Notes: a model not told the origin generated them from the sequence alone. 64,000 nt of DNA from an uncultured Planctomycetia bacterium (GCA_964415355.1 CAYPYS010000003.1:4156-68155); one strand, 5' to 3'; shown: positions 36,700-60,855, counted from the first letter of the stretch. Made by a program: numbers and translations.

Positions 36700-38142
36700 C
36701 TATAGCTTCCCGCGGGTCGCATAATATTCCGGAATAAGCACTTTATCTAAAAGTCTGGGATTCCTTGCGGCTATATCAGAGATCATGCCCATCATGAGTT
36801 TGGTCTTGTAACGAAATAACTCGCAATAATAAGGATCCGGCTGCCCCAGATTCTTGCTTGAGAAATAATTTAGATTATAGCAAGAACCGCAACCTCTGCA
36901 TATGCGCTTCGCCCAGCATTTATTGCAGGCATCGCTTGAAGAAATCTTGTTATCAAAAAATTTTCTAACCTTATCCTCATTTATTCCTTTTCCGACCGTC
37001 CCTATCCTGAATTTTGGCAGGCCTACAAATGCGGTGCAGGGATATATGCTGCCGTCCATATCTACTGCCATCAGAGTAAACCCCGCCGAACAGGTGCCGA
37101 CGATCGACTGAATATGATACAGCCGGCTCAGCTGTTTGAAGAAGCGATTAAAATACGTATTGGCATACGTCAATCTTCCGCCAAGGATCTCTTTGGTGTA
37201 AAAAAGGGCCAGATCATCATATAAAGATTTAAGGCGGGATAATCCCCTGGGCCCTGAAAAGAAAAATTGGTTATTCGGCTCTAATCCATATCCGGCCTTC
37301 TCGCTCTCGCAGACCTCTATGCGATCAAACTCAAGATCACGTAAAAACTTAAATGTCTTCACTATTTCGTCAGAATAAGGTGTAAAGGTAGCTCTCCCTA
37401 CTATGCGTCTTCTATGTTTTTTACTAAGCGATTTTATATTATTTACCACTATATCATATGAACCCGCGCCATCAGGGAAGGGCCGCTGTCTATCCTGGAT
37501 CTTGCGCGGCCCGTCGAGACTTACGGCGACATCCACGCCATTAGATATTAAGTATTCCCCTCTTTCCTTATCCAGCAATACGCCATTGGTAGCAAGCAGA
37601 AAACGGAATTTAATTCCCTTCTTATCTTGTATCTTCCGGCAATATCCGATAACATTTTTTATAAGTTCGAAATTCAAAAGAGGTTCCCCTCCATAAAAAT
37701 CTACAACCAGATCCTTTACCCCCCTCGATTCTCTGACCAATAGATCTATTGCCTTAAATGCTACCTTTTCTCCCATCTTTTTATTATCTCTGGTTAAATT
37801 ACCGTAGCTCCCGGCTTCGTTCCAACAATAACGACAACGCAGATTACAGCTATTTACGATATTTAACGTAAGGTCTGTTATCCTTCTTTTTATATACGAA
37901 TCCGCTGGCTTTGGCTGGCAGAAAATAACCTTGTCCCTCTTTAATCTGGACAGATTATCAATGGTCGCCTTGGCGGGTTTATGCCCATACTTTCGACAGA
38001 TCTTCTCTTCGGCTTCTTTTGCGGTGCAGTGCTGCATCAGGCTTATAGCCTCTGAAGCCATGTCATCTGCTTCAAAGAAATTAGCGCTTTCGACATCGAC
38101 AACAAAGTTTTTATCGCGTATCTTAAATTGATATACTCTCAT
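36700..38142 (-). CDS. Radical SAM enzyme with C-terminal SPASM domain (peptide/cofactor-modifying maturase type)
   Basis: CNLRCRYC (CX3CX2C) plus a C-terminal Cys cluster CTAFVG...CNKCWAKRICRGCGSC. Confidence 0.75.
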   Translation of the reverse strand: MRVYQFKIRDKNFVVDVESANFFEADDMASEAISLMQHCTAKEAEEKICRKYGHKPAKATIDNLSRLKRDKVIFCQPKPADSYIKRRITDLTLNIVNSCNLRCRYCWNEAGSYGNLTRDNKKMGEKVAFKAIDLLVRESRGVKDLVVDFYGGEPLLNFELIKNVIGYCRKIQDKKGIKFRFLLATNGVLLDKERGEYLISNGVDVAVSLDGPRKIQDRQRPFPDGAGSYDIVVNNIKSLSKKHRRRIVGRATFTPYSDEIVKTFKFLRDLEFDRIEVCESEKAGYGLEPNNQFFFSGPRGLSRLKSLYDDLALFYTKEILGGRLTYANTYFNRFFKQLSRLYHIQSIVGTCSAGFTLMAVDMDGSIYPCTAFVGLPKFRIGTVGKGINEDKVRKFFDNKISSSDACNKCWAKRICRGCGSCYNLNYFSSKNLGQPDPYYCELFRYKTKLMMGMISDIAARNPRLLDKVLIPEYYATRGKL

Positions 38143-38189
38143 AAAATCTACTCTTTTTTATTTTCTATCTGATTATGCCGCAACGTAAG

Positions 38190-38205
38190 AAAGGGGAGCC
38201 CCTTT
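38190..38205. terminator. GC-stem hairpin (aaagggg-ag-ccccttt) between the small peptide ORF and the SPASM radical SAM gene
   Basis: Read directly. This is the usual position of an attenuator between a precursor gene and its maturase. Confidence 0.4.
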
Positions 38206-38242
38206 ATGAAAACCTAAAGCAAGCTCCCCTGGAAGGAAATGC

Positions 38243-38323
38243 CTACCACAACACCCTACCGCAACGACAGAATGCCGAAGGATAGCGCCGCTTATTCTTG
38301 CGACGATTAAGCAAGTAAATCAT
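38243..38323 (-). CDS. 26-aa basic, Cys-containing peptide MIYLLNRRKNKRRYPSAFCRCGRVLW (candidate RiPP precursor/leaderless core)
   Basis: ORF found by hand; AAGAAGGGGGG lies 6 nt upstream of the ATG. Same strand as, and immediately upstream of, the SPASM radical SAM gene. Not in the ORF track because of its size. Confidence 0.35.
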   Translation of the reverse strand: MIYLLNRRKNKRRYPSAFCRCGRVLW

Positions 38324-38465
38324 GTGCACCCCCTTCTTCTTTGCTTCTATAGTTTATTATGATATACCCTCTCCTGGCACAAGGCAAGGAAAAAATAAGT
38401 TTACACCTTGTGACACTGTTCGAAAACATCTGGTTATTCTATCCTACCCGATAACATTGAAGATA

Positions 38466-39173
38466 TTACAAAAACACTGCCTTGAGAAACTCCATATAAA
38501 TCCTGTTGTTCAACTTTGACGCGCCGGTCTTTCTCTCTCCGAATACATAATGGATATTCTTTACAGCTATATTCCCGGGCGAGGCCTTTAAAAAATCAAA
38601 GAGTATCTTATAGCCCTTTGGCCTGAAATCGACCAAGCCATTCTTATCAAAAACCCACTCTTTCCAAAAACTTGTGTCTGCGCCAAAAAAACCTGTCAGC
38701 ACATCATAGCTGAAATATTTCTTACCTCTTATCAATAAAGAAAATCTGCCTAAAAAATTTCCAAGATAGGATATGCTTTTTCTTAAGACAGGCCAGCGGC
38801 CTTCTACTATTTTACGAGAAGCCGCAACCAACCTCGACCCCTCTGCCAGGCCGTCCATAATATCCCTTACCCTTTCCCAAGGATGCTGGTTATCCGCATC
38901 CATCACGATAAAATATTTGGTCTTGACCAATCTGGTCGCGTCTAAAATGCTCGCTGTCAGCCCATGGACCCTTTCGTTCTTCCTGTCTAAAAAAAATATC
39001 CTCCTGTCTTGAAAAGATAAAACCAGATCCCTTGTATTATCAGCCGACCCGTCATCCGTTACTATAATAAATATATCGCGGTATAATTCGAATAATTTAT
39101 TTATCAACACACCCACGTTGCCTGCTTCATTTAATGTCGGGAGTATGATAGTGTATTTATTCTCTGGTATCAT
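38466..39173 (-). CDS. GT2-family glycosyltransferase (polyprenyl-phosphate sugar transferase, DPM1/ArnC-like)
   Basis: IILPTLNEAGNV...IIVTDDGSADNT...VMDADNQHP, i.e. the DxD and GT-A motifs. Confidence 0.75.
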   Translation of the reverse strand: MIPENKYTIILPTLNEAGNVGVLINKLFELYRDIFIIVTDDGSADNTRDLVLSFQDRRIFFLDRKNERVHGLTASILDATRLVKTKYFIVMDADNQHPWERVRDIMDGLAEGSRLVAASRKIVEGRWPVLRKSISYLGNFLGRFSLLIRGKKYFSYDVLTGFFGADTSFWKEWVFDKNGLVDFRPKGYKILFDFLKASPGNIAVKNIHYVFGERKTGASKLNNRIYMEFLKAVFL

Positions 39174-40522
39174 TTTAGGACTAGGGGAAGTCTCGATATT
39201 ATCCTGCCTTTAAGGCAGTGGGGATTGCCGGCATAAAGATCTCCTGTTGTTGAAAAAACCTCTGCCCTGCAACTACCCCTGCATCTCTTTCTGAAAAAAC
39301 ACGCCTTGCACGGAAAGTCAAATCTATCCACGTCCATAAGGCTGAGCATCTGCGGAGAATTCCAGATCTCCCCTATATTTTCTTCCAATATGTTTCCAAG
39401 CGGATGATGTAACAGCTCGCAGAAAAATATAGACCCTTCATGGTCTATATTAGTCTCTATATGTCCGCCGTAACAGGAAGTGATTATCGTGACCATGGGC
39501 CTTCCGATCCCATCCCTATTAAGATAGCCCAGGCACTTAAGAAATCCGAATTCCAATTTATTGAGCGCCAGTGTATCGCTATGTTCGCGGCCGCGGCCGG
39601 CCCTGATAAATGTATTGACAATAATCCTTGATACATTGAAATCTTTAAAAAATCTCCTGAGCCTGAATATATCAGAAAAGTTTCTGTGTGTCGCTGTAAA
39701 GTTTATATAGGTATCTATGCCTTCTTTGGAGAGTTTTTCTAAAATTGCGATGGCCTTTTTAAAATGCCCTTCCCCTCTTATGAGGTCATTAGACCTGGAA
39801 GATACTCCGTCCATGCCCATAGACAACGTTATATCTTTTCTCTTGCCGAGTTCTTTTATTTCCTTATCTTTCAGAAGCATGCCATTTGTATTTATCCTGA
39901 CCTTCATGTCCCTGGATAAAATGCAGTCTATTATATCAAATATATGAGGATTTAAAAATGATTCTCCGCCCGTTAAAATAACCTCGAAGACCCCTGCCGC
40001 TTTTATCCTGTCCACTATCTTCCTGATCCTGTGTAAATCTATCCCGCGATCGTCGCCTTTTTCAGGGAGATTATAGCAATGAGCGCATTTCAGATTGCAC
40101 TCATGCGTAATCGTAAAAAATACCCTGAGAGGATATCTGGGCCTGGCGAATCTTGAATAATCCATGTATCCCAGATCAAAAGACTTTATGTCTGGTTTTA
40201 TAAATTTAGGAAGATTATATCGAGGGGCGATATTGTCGCCAAAACCGACCTTGTCGCCATTGAATCGAGAGGTAATAATCTCTTTTTTAAGCAGGTCGTT
40301 CAAAAACTTCTTTACAATAAACCTGGTATGATTATTATTTAAATCAGCGCATTTAAAAGATCCGACAAGCTGTGACAGGTCTACGCCATTGCAATAATAG
40401 AATATAATGGACGCTGTTTCGTTTAGCGTCCAGTATCTATCATTGCGATAGATGATTATCTTGGAACCGTCTTCCCATCGCCATCTTATACTATCATTTT
40501 TATAAAATAATGGGCTCTTCAT
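39170..40522 (-). CDS. Radical SAM/SPASM maturase with N-terminal PqqD-like RiPP-recognition element
   Basis: N-terminal WTLNETASIIFYYCNGVDLSQLV resembles PqqD/RRE. CNLKCAHC core; SPASM Cys cluster FFCELLHHPLGN...FPCKACFFRKRCRGSCRAE. Confidence 0.7.
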   Translation of the reverse strand: MKSPLFYKNDSIRWRWEDGSKIIIYRNDRYWTLNETASIIFYYCNGVDLSQLVGSFKCADLNNNHTRFIVKKFLNDLLKKEIITSRFNGDKVGFGDNIAPRYNLPKFIKPDIKSFDLGYMDYSRFARPRYPLRVFFTITHECNLKCAHCYNLPEKGDDRGIDLHRIRKIVDRIKAAGVFEVILTGGESFLNPHIFDIIDCILSRDMKVRINTNGMLLKDKEIKELGKRKDITLSMGMDGVSSRSNDLIRGEGHFKKAIAILEKLSKEGIDTYINFTATHRNFSDIFRLRRFFKDFNVSRIIVNTFIRAGRGREHSDTLALNKLEFGFLKCLGYLNRDGIGRPMVTIITSCYGGHIETNIDHEGSIFFCELLHHPLGNILEENIGEIWNSPQMLSLMDVDRFDFPCKACFFRKRCRGSCRAEVFSTTGDLYAGNPHCLKGRIISRLPLVLK

Positions 40523-40523
40523 A

Positions 40524-41582
40524 TCATATATTAATATTTTTGTAAGATATATCCAGCTTTGCAGGCAGGATATATCTCGCGCGAAAATCAGGATTATTCA
40601 TAAGGCACCCTTTGTATCCCGAATTAAAAATAGGGTGTGCCCACATAGACTCTAATATTTTATTCAGGGGTCTAGTGCGCATATCCCCGAAACTTACAGG
40701 CACAAAAGGACAAGGCTGCACCTCTCCATAACAGGAGACATAAAAAAAATCTTTTTTTAAGGCTGCGCAAAACCTCTCATCATTTTTACAAAAAGCTTCG
40801 CTGGATTCCAGATACACGAAACCAGGATCAGCGAGCTTCCTGACCTCATTCTCTTCTTCACTGGTCAGTCTCTCTTCTTCTCTGTCCACCCATCTGCCGG
40901 CCAATGTCGCAAATATAACCCGCACAGAGTTGACCTTTAATCTCCTGCCGATATCTATGATCTTCTTCAGCCGTCCACTCTTTATCTTATCTCTATGGGC
41001 GTTCATAAATATGCTGCAGGAAAGGCCTTCCTTAACGCAGGCCTTTATGCCATCAATGGCATTTTCAAAACATCCCTCTGCCTTTGATACTAAATCATGG
41101 CTCTCTCTATCAGGGCCTTCGATCCTCACAAAAATATGATTCAGCCCGGACTTTTTTAATTTCAAAACTACATCCCTGGAAAGATCTACTCCATTAGTTT
41201 CCATTTCAGTAAATAAACCTCTACTGACAGCATAGTCGATCAGCTCATATATATCTTTTCTGAGAAGAGGTTCCCCTCCTATAAAAGAAACAGCAGTGCA
41301 CATGGACGGGTATTCCGCGATCTCGTCCAGTATCTTTTTGACCTCAAAAGAGGAAAGTTCTTTTTCAGGATGCCTGTCATAACTCCCGCACCAGCAATAG
41401 TCACACTTACAATGGCACTCATATGTGAGATTGACCATTGCCTTTAAAACGCCTCCCCTTATGCTCTTGAGAGGATGAACGCAAAGCGTCCTGATCGAAC
41501 GCGCCAGCTGGCAGGACAATCGATTGCTGAATTTTTCCCTGAATTTCAATCTATAATTCTTTAACCTGGCTATGAAATCCAC
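40524..41582 (-). CDS. Radical SAM protein (~350 aa) with SPASM-like C-terminal Cys motifs
   Basis: YECHCKCDYCWC; C-terminal CKNDERFC...VSCYGEVQPCPFVP...GC. Paralog of 45858–46925. Confidence 0.7.
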   Translation of the reverse strand: MDFIARLKNYRLKFREKFSNRLSCQLARSIRTLCVHPLKSIRGGVLKAMVNLTYECHCKCDYCWCGSYDRHPEKELSSFEVKKILDEIAEYPSMCTAVSFIGGEPLLRKDIYELIDYAVSRGLFTEMETNGVDLSRDVVLKLKKSGLNHIFVRIEGPDRESHDLVSKAEGCFENAIDGIKACVKEGLSCSIFMNAHRDKIKSGRLKKIIDIGRRLKVNSVRVIFATLAGRWVDREEERLTSEEENEVRKLADPGFVYLESSEAFCKNDERFCAALKKDFFYVSCYGEVQPCPFVPVSFGDMRTRPLNKILESMWAHPIFNSGYKGCLMNNPDFRARYILPAKLDISYKNINI

Positions 41583-41599
41583 ACAAATCTCCTGCGCAG

Positions 41600-43009
41600 C
41601 TAAAAAATAGTCTTAAAAAAATTAACCACCCTGCCTGTTAATTCATTGATCTCGGAATATCCAAAAATTTCTCTAAGGAGATACGCCGGTCTTAAATAAA
41701 AATCACGGTAACATCTTTTGCGATATTTTATCAACGTATCCATGTCCAGTCCGTATGTTGTATGCGCCAACTTTTTGGGAGAAGAATATTTGTGATAGTG
41801 CCGGTATTCCACGTCCTTTTTGATCTCTCCTCTGGCCAATGCCGTTTTATATAATTTTGATCCGGGGAATGGCTGTGTAATAAAAAACACAGCTCTGTCC
41901 AGAGGTAATTTTTTTGCAAATTTTAAAGTATCTCTAATGCTCTTATCATTATCACCCGGCAGGCCTATCATGAAAAACGCCACTGTCTTTATGCCTGCCT
42001 TCCTGGTCTCGTGAATAGTTTTCTCAATGCATTCTAACTTTATGCCTTTATTTATATTGTCCAGGACCCTCTGATTGCCGGATTCGACGCCATACCCTAT
42101 CTGCCAGCAACCTGATGCCTTCATGGCCTTGAGCGTCTCCGGCGTTACCCGATCGACCCTGCCCATACATGACCAGTCAATCTTTAAGTTCCTGGATATA
42201 AGCTTACGGCATAATTCCATAACCCTTTCCGGACTAAAAGTAAACAGATCATCTACGATACTTACTTCACTGACACCGTACTTATCAACCAGTACCTGTA
42301 TTTCATCCAATATATGTCCTGCACTGCGCGTCCTGAATTGATTGCCGAAAACTGCCTGGTCGCAGAAAACACATTTATACGGGCAGCCGCGGCTAGTGAT
42401 AATGATTGCGTTCGGCAGAGACTTGTAATAGCAATATCTGTATTTATCAACCGGTGGCAACAGGTGCCGTGCAGGAAGAGGTATTGTATCCAGGTCCTCT
42501 ATGTACGGCCTCTTCGTAGTACGGACAGGTTTTTTGCCATTATTGAAGATTATGCCTTTTATATCAGGGATCTTGTCTTTTCTGCGCGCGGAGATGGCAT
42601 CTGCAAGTTCTACTATAGTGCGCTCTCCTTCTCCGAGAACACCGTAATCAAAGCACCCTGTTTCCATTGTCTCTTCAGGAAGTGCGCTAACATGGGGCCC
42701 TCCTATGACTACGGTATAGTCGCCAAGTGATTTTATCTTTTCCGCCAATAATCTTGTTATGCAGAAATCAGGCGTGGAAGAGCCAAGGCCAACAATGCCT
42801 GGATTAAATCCTGAAACATGCTCCAGGATACTGTCTATAGAGAACCTCTCTGCCTTGGCATCTATTATCTTCACATCATAACCTGCGTTTTCTAATGCCG
42901 CGGCTATATAGGCCAGGCCAAGGGGCTGCGACCTGTCATAGACATGCCCAAAGCTCCTGACGCCGGATTCCAAATCACTCGGAGGATGGATCAAAAGTAT
43001 CTTCAGCAA
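41600..43009 (-). CDS. Cobalamin-binding (class B) radical SAM enzyme, paralog A
   Basis: N-terminal B12-binding Rossmann domain (LGLAYIAAALENAGYDVKIIDA...VVIGGPHVSALPEE) plus ITSRGCPYKCVFCDQ. Confidence 0.8.
   Translation of the reverse strand: MLKILLIHPPSDLESGVRSFGHVYDRSQPLGLAYIAAALENAGYDVKIIDAKAERFSIDSILEHVSGFNPGIVGLGSSTPDFCITRLLAEKIKSLGDYTVVIGGPHVSALPEETMETGCFDYGVLGEGERTIVELADAISARRKDKIPDIKGIIFNNGKKPVRTTKRPYIEDLDTIPLPARHLLPPVDKYRYCYYKSLPNAIIITSRGCPYKCVFCDQAVFGNQFRTRSAGHILDEIQVLVDKYGVSEVSIVDDLFTFSPERVMELCRKLISRNLKIDWSCMGRVDRVTPETLKAMKASGCWQIGYGVESGNQRVLDNINKGIKLECIEKTIHETRKAGIKTVAFFMIGLPGDNDKSIRDTLKFAKKLPLDRAVFFITQPFPGSKLYKTALARGEIKKDVEYRHYHKYSSPKKLAHTTYGLDMDTLIKYRKRCYRDFYLRPAYLLREIFGYSEINELTGRVVNFFKTIF
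42467..42928. repeat. 462-nt segment 100% identical to 43873–44334 (B12-domain-coding part of adjacent paralogs)
   Basis: Verified line by line; the copies are offset by exactly 1406 nt. Confidence 0.95.
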
Positions 43010-44421
43010 AACATTGCCCTCAAAATATTCGACATCCTTAGAAACAGGACTTTAAATCCGCGATATCTGATAATCTGTTTCAAAAGATACAGTGGCCGCA
43101 TATAAAATTCGCGGTAAAATTTATTTCTGTATCTTACCAGTGTCTCTGCGGTAAGATCCTTTGCCACATAAGCAAAGCGGTTATGGGCAGCCATGTTGTG
43201 ATAATAACGGTATTCTATGTCTTTAAATATCTCTTTTCTGGCAACGGCATTTTTGTATAGCTCTGATCCGGGAAAAGGCTGAGTGATGCGAAAACCGAGC
43301 TTATCCAGGCCGAGCCTTTTTACAAAACTCAAACTGTCCCTGATATTTTGTTCATTGTCTCCCGGCAATCCTATCATGAGAAAGGCCGCTGCCTCAATGC
43401 CTGCCGTTCTGGTCTGGAAAATAGTCTCTTTGATGCCAGACAGGTTGATATTTTTATTTATCCTGTCCAATGTATCCTGACTACCGGACTCGATCCCGTA
43501 TATGATCTGCCAGCATCCTGCTGACTTCATGGCCTTGAGCGTTTCCGGGGTTACGTGATCTGTCCTGCTCAAGCATGACCAAACCACGTTCATCTTTCTG
43601 GATATTAGCTCGCGGCAAAACTTCAGGATCCTTTCGCGGTCTACGGTAAAAAGATCATCTACGATATCTATGCCTTTTACACCATGTCTTTTTACCAGCA
43701 TCTCTATCTCATCTACTATATTAGGAACGCTCCGCCTTCTGAGATGGTTGCCAAAGACTGCCTGGTCGCAGAAAACACATTTATACGGGCAGCCGCGTGT
43801 GGTTATTATTGTAGCTGTAGGCAAATATCTATACCAGCTGTAACTATATCTCCTTATATCAGGCAGTAATCTCCGTGCAGGAAGAGGTATTGTATCCAGG
43901 TCCTCTATGTACGGCCTCTTCGTAGTACGGACAGGTTTTTTGCCATTATTGAAGATTATGCCTTTTATATCAGGGATCTTGTCTTTTCTGCGCGCGGAGA
44001 TGGCATCTGCAAGTTCTACTATAGTGCGCTCTCCTTCTCCGAGAACACCGTAATCAAAGCACCCTGTTTCCATTGTCTCTTCAGGAAGTGCGCTAACATG
44101 GGGCCCTCCTATGACTACGGTATAGTCGCCAAGTGATTTTATCTTTTCCGCCAATAATCTTGTTATGCAGAAATCAGGCGTGGAAGAGCCAAGGCCAACA
44201 ATGCCTGGATTAAATCCTGAAACATGCTCCAGGATACTGTCTATAGAGAACCTCTCTGCCTTGGCATCTATTATCTTCACATCATAACCTGCGTTTTCTA
44301 ATGCCGCGGCTATATAGGCCAGGCCAAGGGGCTGATATATATCAATGACGGGATTTAGCCTCCCTCCCATGCCTAAATAATCGACCGGCGGATAAACTAA
44401 AAGTATTTTATTTTTTTTCAT
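43003..44421 (-). CDS. Cobalamin-binding (class B) radical SAM enzyme, paralog B
   Basis: N-terminal ~190 aa are identical to paralog A; TTRGCPYKCVFCDQ; the C-terminal half diverges. Confidence 0.8.
   Translation of the reverse strand: MKKNKILLVYPPVDYLGMGGRLNPVIDIYQPLGLAYIAAALENAGYDVKIIDAKAERFSIDSILEHVSGFNPGIVGLGSSTPDFCITRLLAEKIKSLGDYTVVIGGPHVSALPEETMETGCFDYGVLGEGERTIVELADAISARRKDKIPDIKGIIFNNGKKPVRTTKRPYIEDLDTIPLPARRLLPDIRRYSYSWYRYLPTATIITTRGCPYKCVFCDQAVFGNHLRRRSVPNIVDEIEMLVKRHGVKGIDIVDDLFTVDRERILKFCRELISRKMNVVWSCLSRTDHVTPETLKAMKSAGCWQIIYGIESGSQDTLDRINKNINLSGIKETIFQTRTAGIEAAAFLMIGLPGDNEQNIRDSLSFVKRLGLDKLGFRITQPFPGSELYKNAVARKEIFKDIEYRYYHNMAAHNRFAYVAKDLTAETLVRYRNKFYREFYMRPLYLLKQIIRYRGFKVLFLRMSNILRAMFC
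43873..44334. repeat. Second copy of the 462-nt perfect direct repeat
   Basis: Identical to 42467–42928. Confidence 0.95.
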
Positions 44422-44422
44422 T

Positions 44423-45850: not shown

Positions 45851-45857
45851 ATTAAAA

Positions 45858-49854: not shown

Positions 49855-49856
49855 GC

Positions 49857-51209: not shown

Positions 51210-51240
51210 AACTCCTTCTGCGACTCCAGTCCGTAAACTC

Positions 51241-52731: not shown

Positions 52732-52735
52732 TAAA

Positions 52736-54073: not shown

Positions 54074-54096
54074 AAAGCGGTTGCGGATTCTAATCG

Positions 54097-55464
54097 TTAT
54101 CGATCGACATCGTCGTCGTAAATATGCCTGATACAGGCAGAAGCCATCCCCTTATCATCTAACAGATCAGAATATAATGTGCACCTCTTTACTATATCGA
54201 GATCAATATTATATTTATTATGAAATACCCCTACCATAATACTCAATATATTTACCGGCTTAAAGACCTCTTTTAATGAACGTCTCTTCCATAACATATT
54301 AAATATATCGGCGATGATCTTTTTATAAAATTTCCATAATTGTATATTAAATATTAATTCCCTCATCAGAAAAAAGTAAGGCAGGGTAAACGTCAGGCGT
54401 AACCAATTTTTTGCCTTACCTTTGTCTTTAAGCGAGCTTATTATAAGCTTTAAATGCCTGTTTATCCTTTCAAGATCGACTATCTTATTTAATGGCTTTA
54501 TATCCCCTTCGTTAAACTTAAAGACATAACACCTCAGGGCACAGCCAGGTTGCCTGGTCCACATTTTACCGATCAATTTTCTCTGGACTTCGAATAAAAG
54601 CAGGGCAAATTCGGTGCAGACTATAAAATCATCGACACTTAGAGATGTCTGGCTTTCCAGTTCTTCCAGTATCCTCGAATTGGATATGCGGCCAAACTCG
54701 GAATACCTGCCAAGCTGCCATATAGGCGTGAAATTGAGGATCTTTACGCTTCTTATATTCTCTAAACTAAATCTGACCAATCTACCTATCTGATCCGTAT
54801 TTACATTGTCCACTATCACGCTGAATAAAAATATCCATATCCCTGCCTTGTTTAAATTGTCCACGGCCTTCTTTTTTATACCTGTCAATCTATCTCCCCT
54901 CATCGCTTCTTGATCATCATCGTCCAGGCTGTCAAATTGTAAATCCACCAAGTCCAGGCCGGCGGCTTTTAACTTCCTCACGTAATCCATGTTCTTTAAT
55001 TTCTTTCCATTCGTCATCAGACAGACCTTGAATCCTTTCTTTTTCAGCCTGCTGATTATCTCGAACAGATCCTCCCTTAAAGTCGGTTCTCCTCCGGACA
55101 AAAGAATATACTCTCCGTGATAATCCTTAACTCTATCTAAAATCTCCTCTATCGAAGGGTCTTTTCTTCTCGCCTTCTCTTCATTAACGCGCATATAACA
55201 GATCGGGCATTTCTGATTGCACTTAAAGGTTATGTATAATATCAAATCGCGAGGATAAAAATCGCATGCGCCTTCTATATGGCTGAATATCCTGTTCATG
55301 CCGGCATAGACCTTATGGGTGTCGAAAACATGCCTGACTTCAAACATGCCGTGTCTTTTGCAGGTCTTGTTTAAATAAAGAATACCTTGTTTTTCGATCA
55401 CCCTGGCATCGATGATTTCAAGGCATTCCGGACACATGCTTTTTGTGCAATCAATGATATTCAT
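54097..55464 (-). CDS. Radical SAM enzyme with N-terminal CxxC zinc-ribbon (paralog 3 of 3)
   Basis: SMCPECLEI...KTCKRHGMF; CNQKCPICY; SGGEPTL. Start taken at MNIIDCTK. Confidence 0.7.
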   Translation of the reverse strand: MNIIDCTKSMCPECLEIIDARVIEKQGILYLNKTCKRHGMFEVRHVFDTHKVYAGMNRIFSHIEGACDFYPRDLILYITFKCNQKCPICYMRVNEEKARRKDPSIEEILDRVKDYHGEYILLSGGEPTLREDLFEIISRLKKKGFKVCLMTNGKKLKNMDYVRKLKAAGLDLVDLQFDSLDDDDQEAMRGDRLTGIKKKAVDNLNKAGIWIFLFSVIVDNVNTDQIGRLVRFSLENIRSVKILNFTPIWQLGRYSEFGRISNSRILEELESQTSLSVDDFIVCTEFALLLFEVQRKLIGKMWTRQPGCALRCYVFKFNEGDIKPLNKIVDLERINRHLKLIISSLKDKGKAKNWLRLTFTLPYFFLMRELIFNIQLWKFYKKIIADIFNMLWKRRSLKEVFKPVNILSIMVGVFHNKYNIDLDIVKRCTLYSDLLDDKGMASACIRHIYDDDVDR

Positions 55465-55465
55465 T

Positions 55466-56938
55466 TTATCCCCTGTCATACCGTTTATCAGCATCAATGA
55501 TATATTTATAGATAGTCCTGCCCTGGAGATCACGATACATATAATAAATTTTCTGGTACCATAAATCATCCTTGGTCATAAAAATAATACTATTAATTAC
55601 GTCTGTGAAAAATCTTAGGCCTTTGTACTTCAAGCCGCGCTTTAAAAATACACATAACATCCTAAATCTTATGCCCCACATAATTCTATTTAATCGCCTT
55701 TTATTCAATGCCTTCGGCTTCACAGCAAGCCTGTTCCATGATCTTTTTATTTCTTCATCTTCTATTTTAGGATTAACCTTTCTCGCTCTCTCCCCCAGTT
55801 CGGTCTTGGGAAGCGGGTAATAAAAATTAAAATACGCCATAAAAGGGTCCATTTCCTTGATAAGATTTAAACTATTCTTAATGCTCTTATTTGTCTCTTC
55901 CGGGCATCCTATTAAAAAATTCATCTTGTACTCTATCCCATTATCCCTAAGTATCGTCGCAGCATCACATATCTGTTTCCTGTTTATATTCTTTTTATAG
56001 ACACTATTTCTTATGTAATCATCACCTGACTCTATGCCAAGCGAGACCAGAAAGCACCCTGCCCTCCTGGTTTGCCTTGCCCATTCATCTGTAACAATAT
56101 CGCATCGTGTCTGACATCCCCATGGCAGCCTCTTGTTCAATCCTTCCTTTATGTATAAATCAGAAAATTCCTTCAAAAATCTCTTGTCCAACCCAAAGAT
56201 ATCATCGCACACGTAAAGAGCCTTGAGTCCTTTATCGGCATACTTATCTATATTAATTTTTATCTCCTTAATCACATTCTCAGCGCTACGGGTCCTATAA
56301 TACCTACCCTCCGCGATATTTCTAAGGGCATGACACGAACAATAACTGCAGTCATAAGGGCAGCCTCTAGAGGCAAGGACATATAGGCTCCCGGTAACTA
56401 ATACACTAGACTCCAGGTATAAATCAACATCCCAGCGATCCCAATTAGGAAATGGTATATCGTCCAGGTCTTCATTAAAAGGCCTGGGCGCATTCCTTGT
56501 TATGTTCCCCTTCCTGTCTTTGTGCCATATGCCGGGCACCATTGGTTCCTGCCCTTTTTCCAGCGCGTTAAGATATTCCAAAAAAGACCTTTCGCCCTCT
56601 CCTATACATATTGCATCAACCAAGGGATGCTGTATGGTCTCCTCTGGGACCAATGTAGGGTGAACACCTCCTAATATCAATGGCGTATCCGGATAAATCT
56701 CTTTTATAAACCTGGCCATGAAAAGGGCGTTTTGAAACGTGAAGCTCGTGACTGAAAAACCTACTATATCAGGCTTATCTTTGAGGTTTTCCCTTAAAAT
56801 CTTTAAGTAATCCTTTGAATTAAATATAAGATCTACGAGCTTCACGTCATGCCTGTGCTCGATAGAGGATACAAGATATGCGAGGCCTATATTAGGAACT
56901 TTATCCTGTAGATTACAGTTAATCAATGTTACTTTCAT
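55466..56938 (-). CDS. Cobalamin-binding (class B) radical SAM enzyme, paralog E
   Basis: NIGLAYLVSSIEHRHDVKLVD...LILGGVHPTLVPE; ASRGCPYDCSYCSCH. Paralog of D. Confidence 0.8.
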   Translation of the reverse strand: MKVTLINCNLQDKVPNIGLAYLVSSIEHRHDVKLVDLIFNSKDYLKILRENLKDKPDIVGFSVTSFTFQNALFMARFIKEIYPDTPLILGGVHPTLVPEETIQHPLVDAICIGEGERSFLEYLNALEKGQEPMVPGIWHKDRKGNITRNAPRPFNEDLDDIPFPNWDRWDVDLYLESSVLVTGSLYVLASRGCPYDCSYCSCHALRNIAEGRYYRTRSAENVIKEIKINIDKYADKGLKALYVCDDIFGLDKRFLKEFSDLYIKEGLNKRLPWGCQTRCDIVTDEWARQTRRAGCFLVSLGIESGDDYIRNSVYKKNINRKQICDAATILRDNGIEYKMNFLIGCPEETNKSIKNSLNLIKEMDPFMAYFNFYYPLPKTELGERARKVNPKIEDEEIKRSWNRLAVKPKALNKRRLNRIMWGIRFRMLCVFLKRGLKYKGLRFFTDVINSIIFMTKDDLWYQKIYYMYRDLQGRTIYKYIIDADKRYDRG

Positions 56939-58380
56939 GATTTATAAGATGTGGAAATTATTCTCATAATTACCCTGACTAATCCACGCGTTAAACGTAA
57001 AAATTCTCCGATGGTGCGGATCTTTTTGGCCCTTTTTAAAATATACCCTAATCTGAGATAAAAAGAGCGAGTACTTATCCTAATGAGGCTTTTTAATTCT
57101 TTATATGTCATGGAAAACGGCACAAATGTGACATTCGCCAGATCGAACGGGCCATCTGAAACGATCTCCCCCCACTCTGAAGCCTTTTCAGAAAGAATGG
57201 TCCTGGGAAACGGGGTCAGATTGCTGAATGAGGCGTAGTCCAGATCTAAATCGCAGGCAAGTCTTATAGTTTTCAGGGCGTCTTCATAGGTCTCTCCGGG
57301 AATGCCTATTATAAAACTGCCCAGCACCTCTATACCTTCGCTCTTTGCAATATTCACGGCTTCCTTTATTCTACCAGCGTCTATATTTTTATTTAAAAAA
57401 TCCAGGTTTCTTTGAACCGCCGACTCTATGCCATATAGAATCTTCCAGCATCCTGCCTTTTTCATTATTCTAAGTTGTTCAGGGGAAACAGCATCGACTC
57501 TCATCTCTGTGCTCCAAACAATATCCAGGCCTCTCCGCAATATCTCCTCGCATATCTCTATTATCCTGTCCCTGTAAACAGATAAAGAATTATCGAGCAG
57601 GGTAAAATCTCTCACAGAGTATTTTTTAACGCAATATTCTATCTCGTCGACTATATTCCCCGGGCTTCTTACCCTGGAATCCCTCTCTGTATCACAATAT
57701 ATGCAGCCGTATGGACAGCCTCTTGAACAGTAAATATACGTATGCGGCAATTCTTTATAAGTCCCGGAAGGAGGGATGTAATCCCTTTCGCAGACCATGT
57801 CTCTATCAGGAAAAGGTAAGATATCCAAATCCTTAATAACAGGCCTTGGAGAATTGATAATAATCTCGCCATTTTCCCTGACTATAGACCCGCATACCCC
57901 TTTCATTGTCTCCGACCTGGATATCCTTGACGCTATTTCTGAAAATGTGTATTCGCCTTCTCCGTATACTACGCCATCCAGTTCAGGCGCCTCTTCCAAT
58001 CCTTTTTCTTTTATCGCTGACGGGTATCTACCGCCAACAAATATCTTTATGCGCGGAAAAAGTTGTTTCAATAATCTCGCTGTTCTTTTGACATTTGGCC
58101 AGTTGCATATAAGGGACGTTACGCCTACGATCTCTATCGAGTTCTGTCTTATGTTCTCAGCCACCTCATGAAGTGTCCTGAAATAATGCCCCTCCATGTA
58201 AAAGACATTGTGTCCTTTTTGCCTCAGTATCCGAGATAAAGAAAGCAATGAGAAAGAAGGAAGATTTTCAAAAATCCTGTTGGGTGGAATCAACCCAAAA
58301 AACCTGATGATCTTCCTGTCAAAGAACAGATCTGTTTCCCTGCGGTTATTTGATGGAACAGTCAATAATAATATATTCAT
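56935..58380 (-). CDS. Cobalamin-binding (class B) radical SAM enzyme, paralog F
   Basis: B12-like N-domain; IYCSRGCPYGCIYCDTE. Confidence 0.75.
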   Translation of the reverse strand: MNILLLTVPSNNRRETDLFFDRKIIRFFGLIPPNRIFENLPSFSLLSLSRILRQKGHNVFYMEGHYFRTLHEVAENIRQNSIEIVGVTSLICNWPNVKRTARLLKQLFPRIKIFVGGRYPSAIKEKGLEEAPELDGVVYGEGEYTFSEIASRISRSETMKGVCGSIVRENGEIIINSPRPVIKDLDILPFPDRDMVCERDYIPPSGTYKELPHTYIYCSRGCPYGCIYCDTERDSRVRSPGNIVDEIEYCVKKYSVRDFTLLDNSLSVYRDRIIEICEEILRRGLDIVWSTEMRVDAVSPEQLRIMKKAGCWKILYGIESAVQRNLDFLNKNIDAGRIKEAVNIAKSEGIEVLGSFIIGIPGETYEDALKTIRLACDLDLDYASFSNLTPFPRTILSEKASEWGEIVSDGPFDLANVTFVPFSMTYKELKSLIRISTRSFYLRLGYILKRAKKIRTIGEFLRLTRGLVRVIMRIISTSYKS

Positions 58381-58412
58381 TTATTCATCTTGCTCGCGTC
58401 CTACATTTAAAA

Positions 58413-59951
58413 TTATTTTTCAATAAATAACCTGGGTATATTTATTTTTATAAAATAACCAACGCAGTAAGAAAGTTTTTTTTCTATCCTGGGATCGACG
58501 CGATGCACCAGTCTTGATAAATTTACAAGGGCCAGCAACGCGTTCTTATAAAGATGTCTGAGCAGCCTCATATCTGTCAATCTATTTGCATACATCCATA
58601 TATTGAATATACCTATAAGCCTGATTATTCTTTTTATCTCTCTGATCCTCGTATGCGAATGTTTGAAAAAATTCATCCTAAGTATAAAAAAATCCTTAAA
58701 AAATAATCTTTCAAATACAGGCGTAGAGGGCCTGTTATTTATATTCTTCCATGCCCACCATGCTAAGTCCAGCCTGAGCCACCATTTTTTGATATCATAT
58801 GTCTTGTTATATGCAGAATATAATGCAGTCCCGGGATAGGGAATCAATATGCCTCCATTGACCACATATGTAAGTTTTGATAGTATCCTTTTCAAAAATA
58901 AGTATGTTGAGCTTATATGTTCTGATTTCTCCCACGGAAAACCGAACATAAATGAAACATGCGGCCGGATGCCGATCCGAGCTGTCGTATTTATGCGATC
59001 TTCGACCTTATGCAGATCTATTTTCTTTTTTATCAATGTCATTGTTTCCGGACTTCCTGTCTCTATCCCGTATGTTATACTGTAACAACCAGCTTCTTTC
59101 ATCTCTTCAAGCAACTCTTCTGTAATCAGGTCGAATCTTGATATGCAGGTCCATTTTATAGGTCTTGGCAAAGTTCTAAAAAGCCTGCACAGCTCAAACA
59201 CCCTTTGCTTATCATAAGTAAATACATCATCAAGGATAAAAAAAGTATCTATGCCGTACATCTCCTGAAGCCATCTTATTTCCTTAATAACATTTTCAGC
59301 GCTCCTACACCTAAAATCCTTGCCTAATATTTTGGAAGAACAAAAAATACACCCATAAGGGCATCCCCTGCTGGTAATAATATTTCCATAGCGCATGAAT
59401 TCATAACTGGATTTAACATAATCGGAGTGCTTGAATAAATCTTTAGCCGGCAAAGGAATATTGTCTAAATTTCCTATGGGGCTGCGACAGGGATTATGCA
59501 CGATCTCATCTCTGTCATTTTTATAACTGATGCCGGTTACATCCTTTAATTTTGCCTCACCTTTCATGAACCTGAGTATATCCAGTATAATCTCTTCGCC
59601 CTCTCCCTTTATAACAATATCAGCCCCATTTTCTAAAACCTCATCCGGTAATAAAGTCGGATGGGGCCCGCCAGCTATAATTAAAGGGAAGGTCTCTGAT
59701 AAAGCCCTTTGCAGCTTATATGCAAACTTAACAAATGTCGTGGATATAGTTATGGCTATCAAATCCGGTTTAAATGATCCGCTTTCTTTTATGATATCCG
59801 ATATGGTAAATCGGGCATACGGGGCTGCCGCGTCTATGATCTTGACCAAACAACCTTTGTTTTTTAGTGCTGCCCCGATATAGCCCAAACTCAGAGGAGG
59901 GCTTCCGTTGATCACAGGAGAAGGAGGGTGTATTAACAATGCCTTTATCAT
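58413..59951 (-). CDS. Cobalamin-binding (class B) radical SAM enzyme, paralog G
   Basis: MIKALLIHPP...LSLGYIGAALKNKGCLVKIIDA; ITSRGCPYGCIFCSS. Confidence 0.75.
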   Translation of the reverse strand: MIKALLIHPPSPVINGSPPLSLGYIGAALKNKGCLVKIIDAAAPYARFTISDIIKESGSFKPDLIAITISTTFVKFAYKLQRALSETFPLIIAGGPHPTLLPDEVLENGADIVIKGEGEEIILDILRFMKGEAKLKDVTGISYKNDRDEIVHNPCRSPIGNLDNIPLPAKDLFKHSDYVKSSYEFMRYGNIITSRGCPYGCIFCSSKILGKDFRCRSAENVIKEIRWLQEMYGIDTFFILDDVFTYDKQRVFELCRLFRTLPRPIKWTCISRFDLITEELLEEMKEAGCYSITYGIETGSPETMTLIKKKIDLHKVEDRINTTARIGIRPHVSFMFGFPWEKSEHISSTYLFLKRILSKLTYVVNGGILIPYPGTALYSAYNKTYDIKKWWLRLDLAWWAWKNINNRPSTPVFERLFFKDFFILRMNFFKHSHTRIREIKRIIRLIGIFNIWMYANRLTDMRLLRHLYKNALLALVNLSRLVHRVDPRIEKKLSYCVGYFIKINIPRLFIEK

Positions 59952-60027
59952 ATTATAATCAATGCCTGATCTTAAAAGCGCGAGCTCGGAAACTCGGAAA
60001 ATGGAGAAAGGTTTATAAACGTTACTC

Positions 60028-60855
60028 TCATTGGACAAGAAAATAAATTAAAATCAATCCAAAAATGATACTTATGATCTTAAAAGTCTTTCTGATAGTT
60101 AAAATTCCATCTATTGATATCCTGCCTTTGGATCGAAACACCTGCATTATTGATACTTGAATAACAGAGAAAACCAGTGTTAAATAAAAGACGCCTGTCA
60201 TGTTTTCAAAAATAAAAAAGCATAAAAAACTCCAGATCAACCACACAAGCAGTGACAGATGCCACAGCTTGATCGAGCGGTCCATGGGTAAATTCCAATT
60301 GCCTTCGGTCCTGCCATGTCCCATTAAATGAATGATCTGCGAAGGTGCCACTCCTAACCAGATATATCCAGCCAGGTGCAGCGCGGAAAAGGATAATGAT
60401 TTATTGGCAATATAACCTATCAGGAATAATATCGCAAAACCCGTGGAATTCAAAACGATATTAAGCGCTGGTCTTTTCTTAAATCTTGTATAAGGAGAGG
60501 AATATAAAAAACTGACGGTCCCTCCCAAAATAACCAATAAAAATACCATTTTAGAGTAAAAAAAAGAAACAAGCAAATTTATTAGAATTAAAGCAACTGA
60601 GATATATAATGCTATTCTGCGATTATAGCTTTTTCCGGATTCCCTTAAAAAATTGTCTTCCCCGGACTTAAAATCGAAATAGAGATTTATGCTATATCCA
60701 TGTGCCACATATAGAGATGCGATAAAAGACAGTACAAGAAAATCAATGATTACAAGGTCTTTTATGGCAAAGAAAAATCCGAGATATGCTACGCCTATGA
60801 TATAAAACCAATCTCTTGCTCTTAAGAATCTGATATAATACAAAAAGGCAGGCAT
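60028..60855 (-). CDS. Polytopic membrane protein, possibly UbiA-family prenyltransferase-like; first gene of the radical SAM operon
   Basis: ~8 predicted TM helices and an N-terminal RARDW motif reminiscent of UbiA-type enzymes; no clear Asp-rich motif. Weak. Confidence 0.3.
   Translation of the reverse strand: MPAFLYYIRFLRARDWFYIIGVAYLGFFFAIKDLVIIDFLVLSFIASLYVAHGYSINLYFDFKSGEDNFLRESGKSYNRRIALYISVALILINLLVSFFYSKMVFLLVILGGTVSFLYSSPYTRFKKRPALNIVLNSTGFAILFLIGYIANKSLSFSALHLAGYIWLGVAPSQIIHLMGHGRTEGNWNLPMDRSIKLWHLSLLVWLIWSFLCFFIFENMTGVFYLTLVFSVIQVSIMQVFRSKGRISIDGILTIRKTFKIISIIFGLILIYFLVQ

Follow-up and report, generated by a model that had tools for sequence, protein, structure and literature searches.

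What might a bacterium build with 15 radical S-adenosylmethionine (SAM) enzymes whose genes stand side by side? The question is raised by a locus at 36700-60855 in a stretch of 64,000 nucleotides (nt) from an uncultured Planctomycetia bacterium (GCA_964415355.1 CAYPYS010000003.1:4156-68155), which we analysed at its full length and refer to as the window. All sizeable open reading frames (ORFs) in the locus lie on the minus strand and amount to 19 protein genes, numbered here from g19 (upstream) to g1 (downstream) with starts as in the gene calls on contigs of the same species, and one gene of 26 codons. We find the locus to be real, dedicated, undescribed and modular, and its upstream module to be built round enzymes with a single characterised relative, which couples the tails of isoprenoid lipids; both conclusions are robust. 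As to the product, we tentatively favour an isoprenoid-anchored glycoconjugate of the cell envelope, tailored by radical chemistry and possibly linked to a peptide.

A modular locus of radical SAM genes

We annotated the proteins with Pfam and NCBIfam profiles, using the curated family cutoffs of the latter. By Pfam, 15 of the 19 are radical SAM proteins: seven join a B12-binding domain to Radical_SAM (class B; g5, g6, g7, g13, g16, g17 and g18), four carry Radical_SAM with SPASM (g1, g3, g4 and g8), three combine Zn_ribbon_HMPTM (PF23545) with Radical_SAM (PF04055) and have no SPASM (g12, g14 and g15), and one, g9, is MiaB-like, with UPF0004 and Radical_SAM and no TRAM. The remainder are two family 2 glycosyltransferases (GT2; g2 and g11), a UbiA protein (g19; 37 bits, cutoff 34.2) and a protein with a weak GNAT match (g10). 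A first-pass annotation, made by reading the sequence, had listed the same 15 radical SAM genes in the same four classes, with two GT2 genes, a UbiA-like membrane protein and a GNAT-like protein, and the profiles bear it out; the GNAT-like protein falls below the Pfam cutoff (E 7e-4) and is backed by a 185-residue match to the WecD model (E 1.5e-10).

The 18 genes from g19 to g2 are spaced by -29 to +32 nt, with a single exception of 76 nt, which is compatible with their co-transcription as one operon; a gap of 323 nt then separates g2 from g1. The earlier view of consecutive, coupled genes thus keeps its tight packing and its fit to one operon, with 18 genes rather than the 17 it had counted. 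Several genes are paralogues: g5, g6 and g7 are 57-69% identical, g4 and g8 51%, g13 and g16 41%, and g12, g14 and g15 36-42%. Identical proteins occur on marine metagenome contigs and on a 144-kb NCBI contig, and there is no GC break at the cluster. Among species-representative genomes the closest is a metagenome-assembled genome of the Omnitrophota, and we take the source to be a marine, uncultured member of that phylum.

Not one of the 19 proteins scores at or above the curated cutoff of a named NCBIfam family, so there is no housekeeping enzyme among them. BchE scores are 143-217 bits (cutoff 481), AhbD 132 (cutoff 500), MoaA at best 90-92 (cutoff 231) and HemN-related models at most 45 bits; assignment of the radical SAM genes to BchE, HemN or MoaA, the outcome that the first-pass annotation had said would sink its proposal, did not occur, all scores lying below the equivalog cutoffs. 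Membership of housekeeping, hopanoid, ladderane, BchE, mycofactocin and proteusin families was likewise rejected on scores well below the curated cutoffs. Because the genes abut, the gene order within modules is conserved elsewhere and tandem duplication has occurred, we take the locus to encode a dedicated pathway.

Comparison with related loci (designated L plus a number) resolves the locus into three separately inherited modules, A, B and C, set head to tail on one strand (Table 1). Two subclusters joined at 41.6 kb had been suspected from the sequence; the modularity is confirmed, the joint lies instead at about 49855, and g1 with the peptide gene forms a third unit. L010 and L095 carry orthologs of g19, g18, g12, g17, g15, g14 and g13 at 55-68% identity and no orthologs of g1-g10; in these loci the module A orthologs are followed by genes for a PMT_2-like membrane protein of 532 amino acids, a GT2 and a sulfatase-family protein, and then by unrelated genes. 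Relatives of g12 at 47-56% identity occur in L007, L175 and L176, and relatives of g16 at 47% in L176. Scans of genome and metagenome collections added at least two further loci of the subfamily, L095 and L096. Genes for the zinc-ribbon enzymes, called Tes-like below, and for B12 radical SAM enzymes are present in all related module A loci, and a UbiA-like gene in six of eight (L007, L009, L010, L096, L176 and L177; not L175 or L178).

The neighbours of module A in these loci include genes for envelope glycans. L007 has a PMT_2 glycosyltransferase of the GT-C type; L176 has two copies of it and a class IV aminotransferase; L175 has a weak PMT_2 match, a YdjC gene, a GT2-methyltransferase fusion and a class IV aminotransferase; L009 and L177 have Wzy_C and further glycosyltransferases, L177 also a U32 peptidase-family gene. 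The glycosyltransferase, sulfatase, YdjC, aminotransferase and ABC transporter genes beside module A are all genes of lipid-linked glycan pathways. L178 (2158-10004) is a distant Tes-like/B12 cluster with a Wzm/Wzt-type ABC transporter and a 2-oxoacid:ferredoxin oxidoreductase-like pair amid its Tes-like genes; this pair might be a dedicated source of reductant.

Module B recurs independently. In L179, orthologs of g11, g10, g9, g8, g4 and g3 and of at least one B12 enzyme keep the gene order of the window at 45-66% identity and are enclosed by a pair of very large PMT_2 GT-C genes (983 and 1106 amino acids), and no Tes-like gene, UbiA-like gene or small ORF lies near them in the 21 kb covered; in L180 the B12-B12-g4-g3 part is repeated. 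No precursor-like peptide is common to loci with module A only or module B only within 10-20 kb, and the small ORFs shared among module A and B loci are only antisense shadows of real genes. The comparison shows that modules of differing history can be pieced together in a large radical SAM operon.

Homologues of lipid enzymes in module A

In a sequence search g14, one of the three zinc-ribbon enzymes, matches GDGT-MAS, also known as Tes (structure 7TOL), with an E-value of 9.6e-46. An AlphaFold (AF2) model of g14, built from an alignment of 18 sequences (pLDDT 90.8, pTM 0.91), superposes in Foldseek on 7TOL/7TOM over the whole chain with a TM-score of 0.83 (486 columns, E 4e-35); all other PDB entries match the radical SAM core only, with TM-scores of at most 0.41. 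GDGT-MAS contains a rubredoxin-type iron site, whose motif we took from PMC9433317, the radical SAM cluster and two further clusters, [4Fe-4S]N (C73, C77, C80 and a His) and [4Fe-4S]C; it couples carbons of lipid tails, with a substrate carbon-sulfur intermediate on one cluster (PMC9433317), which a 2026 review places on the C-terminal one (PMC13459092).

An alignment set g12, g14, g15 and 15 of their homologues against 11 reference Tes sequences, of which 8 are archaeal and 3 bacterial. The CX3CX2C radical SAM motif (C80, C84 and C87 in g14 numbering) is invariant in 18/18 members of the subfamily. C12, C15 and C36 of the rubredoxin-type CX2CX20CX2H site are invariant too, the fourth ligand being His in g12 and g15 and Asp in g14, as are C304, C420 and C434, which align with the Cys ligands of the C-terminal cluster of true Tes. 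A segment of about 20 residues, CPxDCGxCxxH, that forms the [4Fe-4S]N site is absent from 18/18 members and present in 10 of the 11 reference sequences, the other being a divergent Aenigmarchaeota sequence (L036) without the Cys motif. In a profile search of 1.84 billion representative proteins, the best representatives, about 60 in number, have a single CX3CX2C, and the double motif first appears at rank 64; a word-indexed search finds 17 relatives at 33% identity or more. The subfamily's branch lies outside true Tes, in which the double Cys motif is retained.

These enzymes thus share with GDGT-MAS (MJ0619) the CxxC...CxxH ribbon, the radical SAM core and a C-terminal helical domain with three cluster-ligand Cys. 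They differ in lacking the [4Fe-4S]N segment, in scoring 217 (g12), 175 (g14) and 204 bits (g15) against a cutoff of 450 for Tes (NF045702), in coming as three paralogues per operon, and in their bacterial host and glycan-gene context, which replaces archaeal phospholipid genes. Lacking a defining feature, the [4Fe-4S]N segment, and scoring below the family cutoff, they are not members of the Tes equivalog. On the alignment and the predicted fold we regard g12, g14 and g15 as true GDGT-MAS/Tes homologues that form a distinct sister subfamily without the N-terminal cluster, and as candidates for a Tes-like function. The suggestion that they recall tetraether synthase had therefore been right on homology and fold, and fails at the family cutoff and the N-terminal cluster.

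The first gene of the operon, g19, encodes a divergent member of the UbiA superfamily. A profile of its six-member family matches best the DGGGPS of M. jannaschii (6M31; 5e-11, full length) and then AfUbiA (4TQ3), and the NCBIfam matches of the family are ChlG/BchG, archaeal prenyltransferases and DGGGPS, with no match of phosphoribosyltransferase type. Assignment as a protein of the decaprenyl-phosphate phosphoribosyltransferase type was rejected, the PDB and NCBIfam profile matches giving it no support. Like the DGGGPS/ChlG branch, g19 is a membrane protein of about seven transmembrane segments; it departs from that branch in its first motif (NxxxD), in a second motif that contains His, and in a Pfam score barely above the cutoff. 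Four residues, N57, D61, Y118 and K126, are invariant in the six-member alignment, and by comparison with UbiA-family structures they would lie at diphosphate-binding positions.

Among the B12 enzymes, g18 has ApyD, HpnJ and BchE as its best NCBIfam matches, all far below cutoff, and HpnJ (119-227 bits, cutoff 577) is among the best-scoring named families for g5-g7 of module B. Archaeal B12 radical SAM enzymes form rings in glycerol dialkyl glycerol tetraethers (GDGTs; GrsA/B) and methylate them (Hgm; bioRxiv 10.1101/2023.10.20.563219). The window resembles these systems and the hopanoid enzymes HpnJ, HpnP and HpnR in setting class-B radical SAM genes beside a lipid C-C coupling enzyme. By comparison with the NCBIfam profiles it differs in scores far below the family cutoffs, and it has seven copies that fall into two paralogue groups. 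No squalene-hopene cyclase or archaeal lipid gene lies near the B12 enzymes.

Homologues of sugar and peptide enzymes in modules B and C

Module B opens with g11, whose PDB matches are ArnC (1.3e-40), GtrB (6e-27) and dolichol-phosphate mannose synthase (DPMS; 4e-23); the match stops at ArnC residue 219, and the NCBIfam ArnC score is 160 bits against a cutoff of 529. The second GT2, g2, matches DPMS 5MLZ over its full length (5.5e-18). Neither protein has a hydrophobic segment corresponding to the C-terminal transmembrane helices of ArnC and GtrB, and no peptide S- or O-glycosyltransferase is found among their PDB matches. From these matches g2 and g11 belong to the polyprenyl-phosphate class of GT2s; enzymes of the ArnC/GtrB/DPMS class load sugars onto polyprenyl phosphate. 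Next to g11, g10 matches the WecD model PRK10975 over residues 118-309.

The comparison extends to the three-component systems of ArnC/ArnT and Gtr type, including the polyprenyl-phosphoribose systems described by Kelly et al. 2024 (PMC11127046). Polyprenyl-phosphate GT2s (g11 ArnC-like, g2 DPMS-like) are common to both, and a PMT_2/ArnT-family GT-C is found at L007, L176 and L179, with weaker matches at L010 and L175. Unlike those systems, the window has no GT-C or flippase and up to 15 radical SAM enzymes are interposed, and g19 is not of the phosphoribosyltransferase type.

The radical SAM enzymes of module B are diverse. The g9 protein scores 218 bits with TIGR00089 (cutoff 251; profile positions 2-354 of 429), keeps the Cys triad of the N-terminal methylthiotransferase domain and has CX4CX2C (C187, C192 and C195) where CX3CX2C is canonical. 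The tandem triplet g5-g7 has relatives of 54-58% identity at the same position in L179 and L180. In the paralogues g4 and g8 the radical SAM motif lies in a Cys-dense stretch, CHCKCDYCWC in g4 and CQCNCEYCC in g8. The first-pass annotation had seen a PqqD-like recognition element in the SPASM enzyme g3, and this is upheld: the N-terminus matches Pfam PqqD (E 0.002) with a pattern conserved in the family alignment, four homologues carry PF05402, the 90 N-terminal residues of the AF2 model have pLDDT 82-94, and the fold match to SuiB is full length. SuiB, the maturase that makes the Lys-Trp cross-link of streptide, is the best match across the domains of g3, namely the RRE (the recognition element of RiPPs, peptides that are made on the ribosome and modified after translation), radical SAM and SPASM. 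The two differ in that identity is only 16-17%, no streptide-like precursor is present, and the ortholog of g3 in L179 has a GT-C gene next to it and no adjacent peptide gene. With the MftC type g3 scores 123 bits (cutoff 265), and homologues of MftB, MftD and MftE are absent from the locus. Module B therefore gives signs in two directions, towards lipid-linked sugars and towards peptide recognition.

Module C lies beyond the tightly packed operon. The 323-nt gap holds, in order, a promoter-like site, a strong Shine-Dalgarno sequence (GAAGGGGGTG), the 26-codon ORF (MIYLLNRRKNKRRYPSAFCRCGRVLW) and a stable hairpin with a U-rich tract, after which g1 begins. The promoter-like site is a consensus match only, and promoter and terminator counts over the cluster are only modestly above those of shuffled controls and uninformative in this AT-rich genome. 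The predicted peptide ends in CRCGRVLW and has two Cys and no Asp or Glu.

The same arrangement is found in L181, from an Omnitrophota metagenome-assembled genome (GCA_030649895.1): a TTGACA-17-TATAAT promoter, a Shine-Dalgarno sequence, the peptide MIRLLNRSKGKRRYRAAFCRCGRVLW, a hairpin (z -4.1) and a maturase gene. The two peptides are identical at 21/26 positions, with 11 synonymous and 5 non-synonymous codon differences, and over the last 10 codons there are 6 synonymous and 0 non-synonymous changes. A paralogous peptide in L181, ...KKLSRYCRSGRVLW, which ends in YCRSGRVLW with a single Cys, precedes a second maturase 40% identical to g1. The excess of synonymous changes between window and L181 indicates that the peptide gene is real and under purifying selection. 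No NCBIfam model matches it, and among the 15 billion proteins of a large collection it had not once been called; its first detection, as a small Cys peptide ORF, proves to have been a genuine gene conserved beside a maturase.

That maturase, g1, aligns with CteB (5WGG) at 4.6e-59 over g1 residues 3-444 and CteB residues 7-439, and with TIGR03974 over positions 1-444. Its NCBIfam scores for SCIFF, Nif11, PapB and QhpD are 223-250 bits, all below the cutoffs (SCIFF 250 against 425, PapB 246 against 340). In having numerous close relatives g1 stands apart from the other genes: full-length homologues number about 65, with identities of 54-74%, and those that carry a name are mostly from Omnitrophota, while 1250 matches reach E <=1e-40. 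A member of its 90%-identity cluster is named Candidatus Omnitrophota, and a scan of viral contigs with the g1 profile returned nothing relevant. Module C agrees with the SCIFF/ranthipeptide systems (CteB, PapB) and QhpD in the full-length CteB alignment, RRE included, and in a short Cys peptide gene directly upstream of the maturase with a hairpin between. It differs in a peptide of 26 residues with one or two Cys and the ending CR[CS]GRVLW instead of six Cys in about 45 residues, in the lack of Asp and Glu, which there serve with Thr as partner residues of Cys, in g1 scoring below every family cutoff, and in the 54-74% conservation of the g1 family across many Omnitrophota. Wide conservation of this kind would be expected of a cofactor-like or physiological peptide more than of a variable bacteriocin. 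Module C is a RiPP-like pair of precursor peptide and maturase, probably with a promoter of its own.

A RiPP had been one of two readings offered by the first-pass annotation. It survives at the 3' end, where the conserved 26-residue ORF, the CteB-like g1 and the SuiB-like g3 favour it, and loses its analogy with proteusins: there is no NHLP/Nif11 leader, scores for the TIGR03975 C-methyltransferase are 74-115 bits (cutoff 282), and no precursor ORF with a long leader of NHLP or Nif11 type fits, the 323-nt gap being the only intergenic space.

Candidate products and genomic surroundings

From gene content, homologies, predicted folds, modular inheritance and the conservation of the peptide we infer a pathway as follows. 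The locus would be an accessory biosynthetic island of three modules. Module A would produce an isoprenoid lipid and tailor it on the cytoplasmic side of the membrane: g19 would act like DGGGPS and ChlG and transfer a prenyl chain, probably of about C20, to an oxygen acceptor; the Tes-like enzymes would join unactivated chain carbons, C(sp3)-C(sp3), through a substrate-cluster intermediate on the C-terminal [4Fe-4S], as in GDGT-MAS; and the four B12 radical SAM enzymes of the module would methylate or cyclise chain carbons. Module B would supply and tailor the polar part, its two GT2s putting sugars on lipid phosphate, the WecD-like g10 N-acylating an amino sugar, and seven further radical SAM enzymes, one with a peptide-recognition domain, carrying out radical tailoring. 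The product would be an isoprenoid glycoconjugate that is anchored in the membrane as part of the cell envelope, possibly with the modified peptide joined to it. This reading, which we prefer at something short of even confidence, draws on the Tes homology, the polyprenyl-phosphate GT2s and the embedding of related loci in lipid-linked glycan machinery. The lipid reading of the first-pass annotation is kept in its upstream part, where it gains from the Tes homology, the DGGGPS/ChlG relatives of g19 and the class of the GT2s. Its link to ispA and dxs is given up: these genes stand beside that for the large subunit of exonuclease VII, among other housekeeping genes and 26 kb from the nearest cluster gene, and nothing argues for a connection.

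Several observations weigh against the glycoconjugate. The Tes-like enzymes lack the N-terminal cluster segment, as described above. UbiA prenyltransferases bind Mg-diphosphate with two Asp-rich motifs. In g19 the first Asp-rich motif (NDxxDxxxD) retains only N57 and D61, and the second (DxxxD) is replaced, with an invariant H176 in its place; with the canonical Asp-rich residues mostly lost, g19 may not be a prenyltransferase, and we infer prenyl transfer to an oxygen acceptor only weakly. The window contains no GT-C, flippase or lipid-phosphate-forming gene, and its 64 kb hold no GGGPS, glycerol-1-phosphate (G1P) dehydrogenase or geranylgeranyl reductase. The predicted model of g3 has SuiB and SkfB as its best fold matches over the full length, and an enzyme built like SuiB suggests that some of module B, if not more, acts on a peptide or protein and not on a lipid or sugar. 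Directly downstream of g2 lies the gene of a genuine precursor peptide with that of a CteB-like maturase. In L181 (1-12819), genes for an FPP synthase, a canonical UbiA protein (ChlG/DGGGPS-like) and a variant radical SAM enzyme lie between two pairs of ...GRVLW peptide and maturase, and 18 nt beyond the second maturase begin four B12 radical SAM genes; with the pair set amid FPP synthase, UbiA and B12 genes, the peptide may be the true scaffold. The link of the peptide to UbiA and B12 genes comes from two genomes only. L181 itself looks like a second, differently equipped peptide/isoprenoid/radical SAM locus.

The foremost alternative, which we consider unlikely, is a single peptide-centred pathway in which all 19 enzymes act on the 26-residue scaffold to give a prenylated lipopeptide with cross-links, C-methyl groups and sugars, in effect a very heavily tailored RiPP. 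The conserved peptide gene adjoining a CteB-like maturase, the SuiB-like g3 with its RRE and the arrangement in L181, where a pair stands closely before four B12 genes and FPP synthase and UbiA are bracketed by the two pairs, all speak for it. RiPP tailoring has precedents for all the enzyme classes of module B (B12-dependent C-methylation, SPASM cross-linking, GNAT acylation and GT2 glycosylation), and if the peptide is phylum-wide the tailoring modules need not adjoin its gene. Against this, the g1 family is widespread in Omnitrophota (about 65 homologues) and modules A and B are rare, so the peptide-maturase pair usually occurs without them; these differing distributions and the absence of such a peptide within 10-20 kb of A-only or B-only loci lower the probability of the pathway. 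The peptide also has its own promoter-like site and terminator-like hairpin, the GT2s resemble polyprenyl-phosphate enzymes and their PDB matches include no peptide S-/O-glycosyltransferase, the locus has no leader peptidase or exporter, and we know of no peptide substrates for enzymes of the Tes or UbiA type. A related proposal, to which we give a somewhat lower chance, makes the peptide ...CR[CS]GRVLW a scaffold for lineage-specific enzyme sets (UbiA-type, Tes-type, B12 radical SAM and glycosyl transfer) that would lead to an isoprenoid-anchored, cross-linked lipo(glyco)peptide or to a membrane-bound cofactor derived from the peptide, with a Cys/Trp-derived head group and prenylated in the manner of quinones.

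Comparably improbable is a pathway to a lipid-linked sugar donor, in which the radical SAM enzymes would remodel a polyprenyl-phosphate sugar, a GT-C encoded elsewhere would transfer it to an envelope glycan or protein, and the tail would stay untouched. The ArnC-like and DPMS-like GT2s and the WecD-like acyltransferase would suit it, as would the PMT_2 GT-C or Wzy_C genes that flank related loci, the YdjC deacetylase and class IV aminotransferase genes in L175 and L176, and the pairing of a UbiA-family enzyme with a GT-C, which is the logic of polyprenyl-phosphoribose systems (PMC11127046). The UbiA-like family nevertheless matches DGGGPS and ChlG and shows no phosphoribosyltransferase-type similarity, and flippase and GT-C are absent from the window. 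The GDGT-MAS architecture is wholly retained, C-terminal domain included, which argues for a lipid tail as substrate. To our knowledge there is no precedent for 10 or more radical SAM enzymes acting on one sugar.

Less likely again is a core lipid made in bulk that spans the membrane, a tetraether-like or macrocyclic isoprenoid of bacteria that would be the counterpart of the archaeal Tes, Grs and Hgm GDGT pathway. Three Tes homologues stand beside B12 radical SAM genes, as in archaeal ring formation and methylation (bioRxiv 10.1101/2023.10.20.563219), a DGGGPS-like UbiA protein is adjacent, and bacterial Tes homologues have been discussed as candidate tetraether synthases (PMC11868695). Yet the Tes-like subfamily has few members and a patchy distribution (17 relatives at 33% or more; about 60 representative clusters above the first true Tes) and so is unsuited to a core membrane lipid, it branches outside true Tes with the double Cys motif, its context is one of glycan and envelope genes instead of phospholipid genes, and no GGGPS, G1P dehydrogenase or saturase gene is nearby. 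That unrelated housekeeping radical SAM genes (BchE, HemN, MoaA, MiaB, AhbD and others) have come together by chance is hardly credible: BchE, HpnJ, AhbD, MoaA and MiaB are among the best-scoring named families and the flanks are housekeeping, but the scores are far below the cutoffs (BchE, AhbD and Tes alike), the genes abut or overlap, gene order within modules is conserved in other organisms, and g5/g6/g7 and g4/g8 are products of recent tandem duplication.

Table 1. Features of the locus and of its surroundings, in order from upstream to downstream on the minus strand
Feature	Position	Strand	Description
FtsH paralogue	60962-62587	+	AAA and peptidase M41, 541 amino acids
Module A	49857-60855	-	g19 to g12
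g19	60028-60855	-	divergent UbiA-superfamily membrane protein, 7 predicted transmembrane segments; first operon gene
g18	58413-60038 (start probably 59951)	-	class-B radical SAM; 61% ortholog in L010
g17	56935-58380	-	class-B radical SAM; 68% ortholog in L010
g16	55466-56938	-	class-B radical SAM; paralogue of g13 (41%)
g15	54097-55494	-	Tes/GDGT-MAS-like radical SAM with N-terminal rubredoxin-type zinc ribbon; no [4Fe-4S]N motif, three C-terminal Cys kept; 60% ortholog in L010
g14	52736-54073	-	Tes/GDGT-MAS-like radical SAM; match to 7TOL
g13	51241-52725	-	class-B radical SAM; 61% ortholog in L010
g12	49857-51209	-	Tes/GDGT-MAS-like radical SAM; last module A gene; 58% ortholog in L010
Module B	38466-49854	-	g11 to g3, probably g2 too
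g11	49126-49854	-	GT2, polyprenyl-phosphate class (ArnC/GtrB/DPMS-like); first module B gene; 45% ortholog in L179
g10	48164-49129	-	two-domain acyltransferase, WecD-like (amino-sugar N-acetyltransferase); 57% ortholog in L179
g9	46950-48173	-	MiaB/RimO-like methylthiotransferase-type radical SAM, no TRAM; 66% ortholog in L179
g8	45858-46925	-	small SPASM radical SAM, AhbD/NirJ-like, paralogue of g4 (51%); 58% ortholog in L179
g7	44423-45850	-	class-B radical SAM, tandem triplet with g5 and g6 (57-69% mutual identity)
g6	43003-44421	-	class-B radical SAM of the same triplet
g5	41600-43009	-	class-B radical SAM of the same triplet
g4	40524-41582	-	small SPASM radical SAM, AhbD/NirJ-like; 55-58% orthologs in L179 and L180
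g3	39170-40522	-	radical SAM/SPASM maturase, N-terminal PqqD-like RRE, SuiB-like; 53% ortholog in L179
g2	38466-39173	-	GT2, DPMS-like; last gene of the tightly packed operon
Module C	36700-38323	-	26-codon peptide gene and g1
Promoter-like site	38359-38387	-	TTGCCT-17-TATCAT, about 36 nt upstream of the peptide gene
Peptide gene	38243-38323	-	26 codons; putative precursor peptide
Stem-loop and U-rich tract	38186-38230	-	between peptide gene and g1; -29.3 kcal/mol, z -2.4
g1	36700-38142	-	CteB/SCIFF-maturase-like radical SAM/SPASM, N-terminal RRE region
tRNA-fMet(CAU) gene	34735-35016	-	initiator tRNA, split by an intron
Group I intron	34776-34980	-	about 205 nt, in the anticodon loop of the tRNA gene
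Small ORF	34381-34560	-	59 amino acids, GIY-YIG-like N-terminal motif
PurD gene	25103-27397	-	764 amino acids
Exonuclease VII gene	10950-12125		large subunit
ispA	9858-10670		isoprenoid gene
dxs	7928-9847		isoprenoid gene
PabB-like/PabC-like fusion gene	1839-3641	-	600 amino acids

The flanks of the locus are housekeeping: enolase, purine biosynthesis, an FtsH paralogue, 2-oxoacid:ferredoxin oxidoreductase and others. The FtsH paralogue has two transmembrane helices and almost no periplasmic loop, and is divergent from g19 behind a near-consensus promoter (TTGACA-17-TATACT). On the other side, the initiator tRNA gene was recognised by its group I intron (Rfam RF00028, 70.7 bits); its exons, read by eye, closely resemble E. 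coli tRNA-fMet, and ARAGORN does not report the gene. Just downstream of it lies the 59-residue ORF (MKRYYVYILASKRNGVLYIGITSDL...), whose GIY-YIG-like motif was seen by eye. In PurD, GARS_A is split into two Pfam stretches and GARS_C begins only at residue 669; the protein thus has a large insertion and gives a weak LAGLIDADG_3 match at residues 445-497, and the insertion is probably an intein. The fusion protein near the window's start joins a chorismate-binding (PabB-like) to a class IV aminotransferase (PabC-like) domain.

As far as profile libraries and the searchable literature show, the first-pass statement that no cluster of this composition has been described still stands. A cassette of UbiA-like, Tes-like and B12 genes is not described in the literature on Tes, Mss, Grs, Gms/Hbs and Hgm, which, with the 2026 review (PMC13459092), treats bacterial Tes homologues only as branched-tetraether candidates. 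A survey of clusters in the Cariaco Basin reports calls of RiPP, terpene and ladderane type in Omnitrophota metagenome-assembled genomes and does not detail this locus, and neither lipids nor this cluster are a subject of a 2026 preprint on Omnitrophota genomes.

Three results are of most use: a Tes-like subfamily with no N-terminal cluster, the map of the modules and the ...GRVLW peptide, which had no annotation. Which organisms outside Archaea make membrane-spanning lipids, and by what means, is an open question in which bacterial relatives of Tes are central, and the subfamily, in three copies, always with B12 radical SAM enzymes and mostly with a UbiA-like protein, offers a concrete gene set. 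The mosaic nature of the locus matters when genome-mining tools label such regions. In the Omnitrophota, a phylum without cultured members whose envelope and cofactor chemistry is unknown, an unannotated short peptide gene is paired with a conserved maturase. If the peptide and the isoprenoid enzymes belong together, they would define a new kind of lipid-peptide conjugate, and a true peptide scaffold would be the first case of archaeal-type lipid C-C coupling and UbiA prenyltransferases in a ribosomal-peptide pathway.

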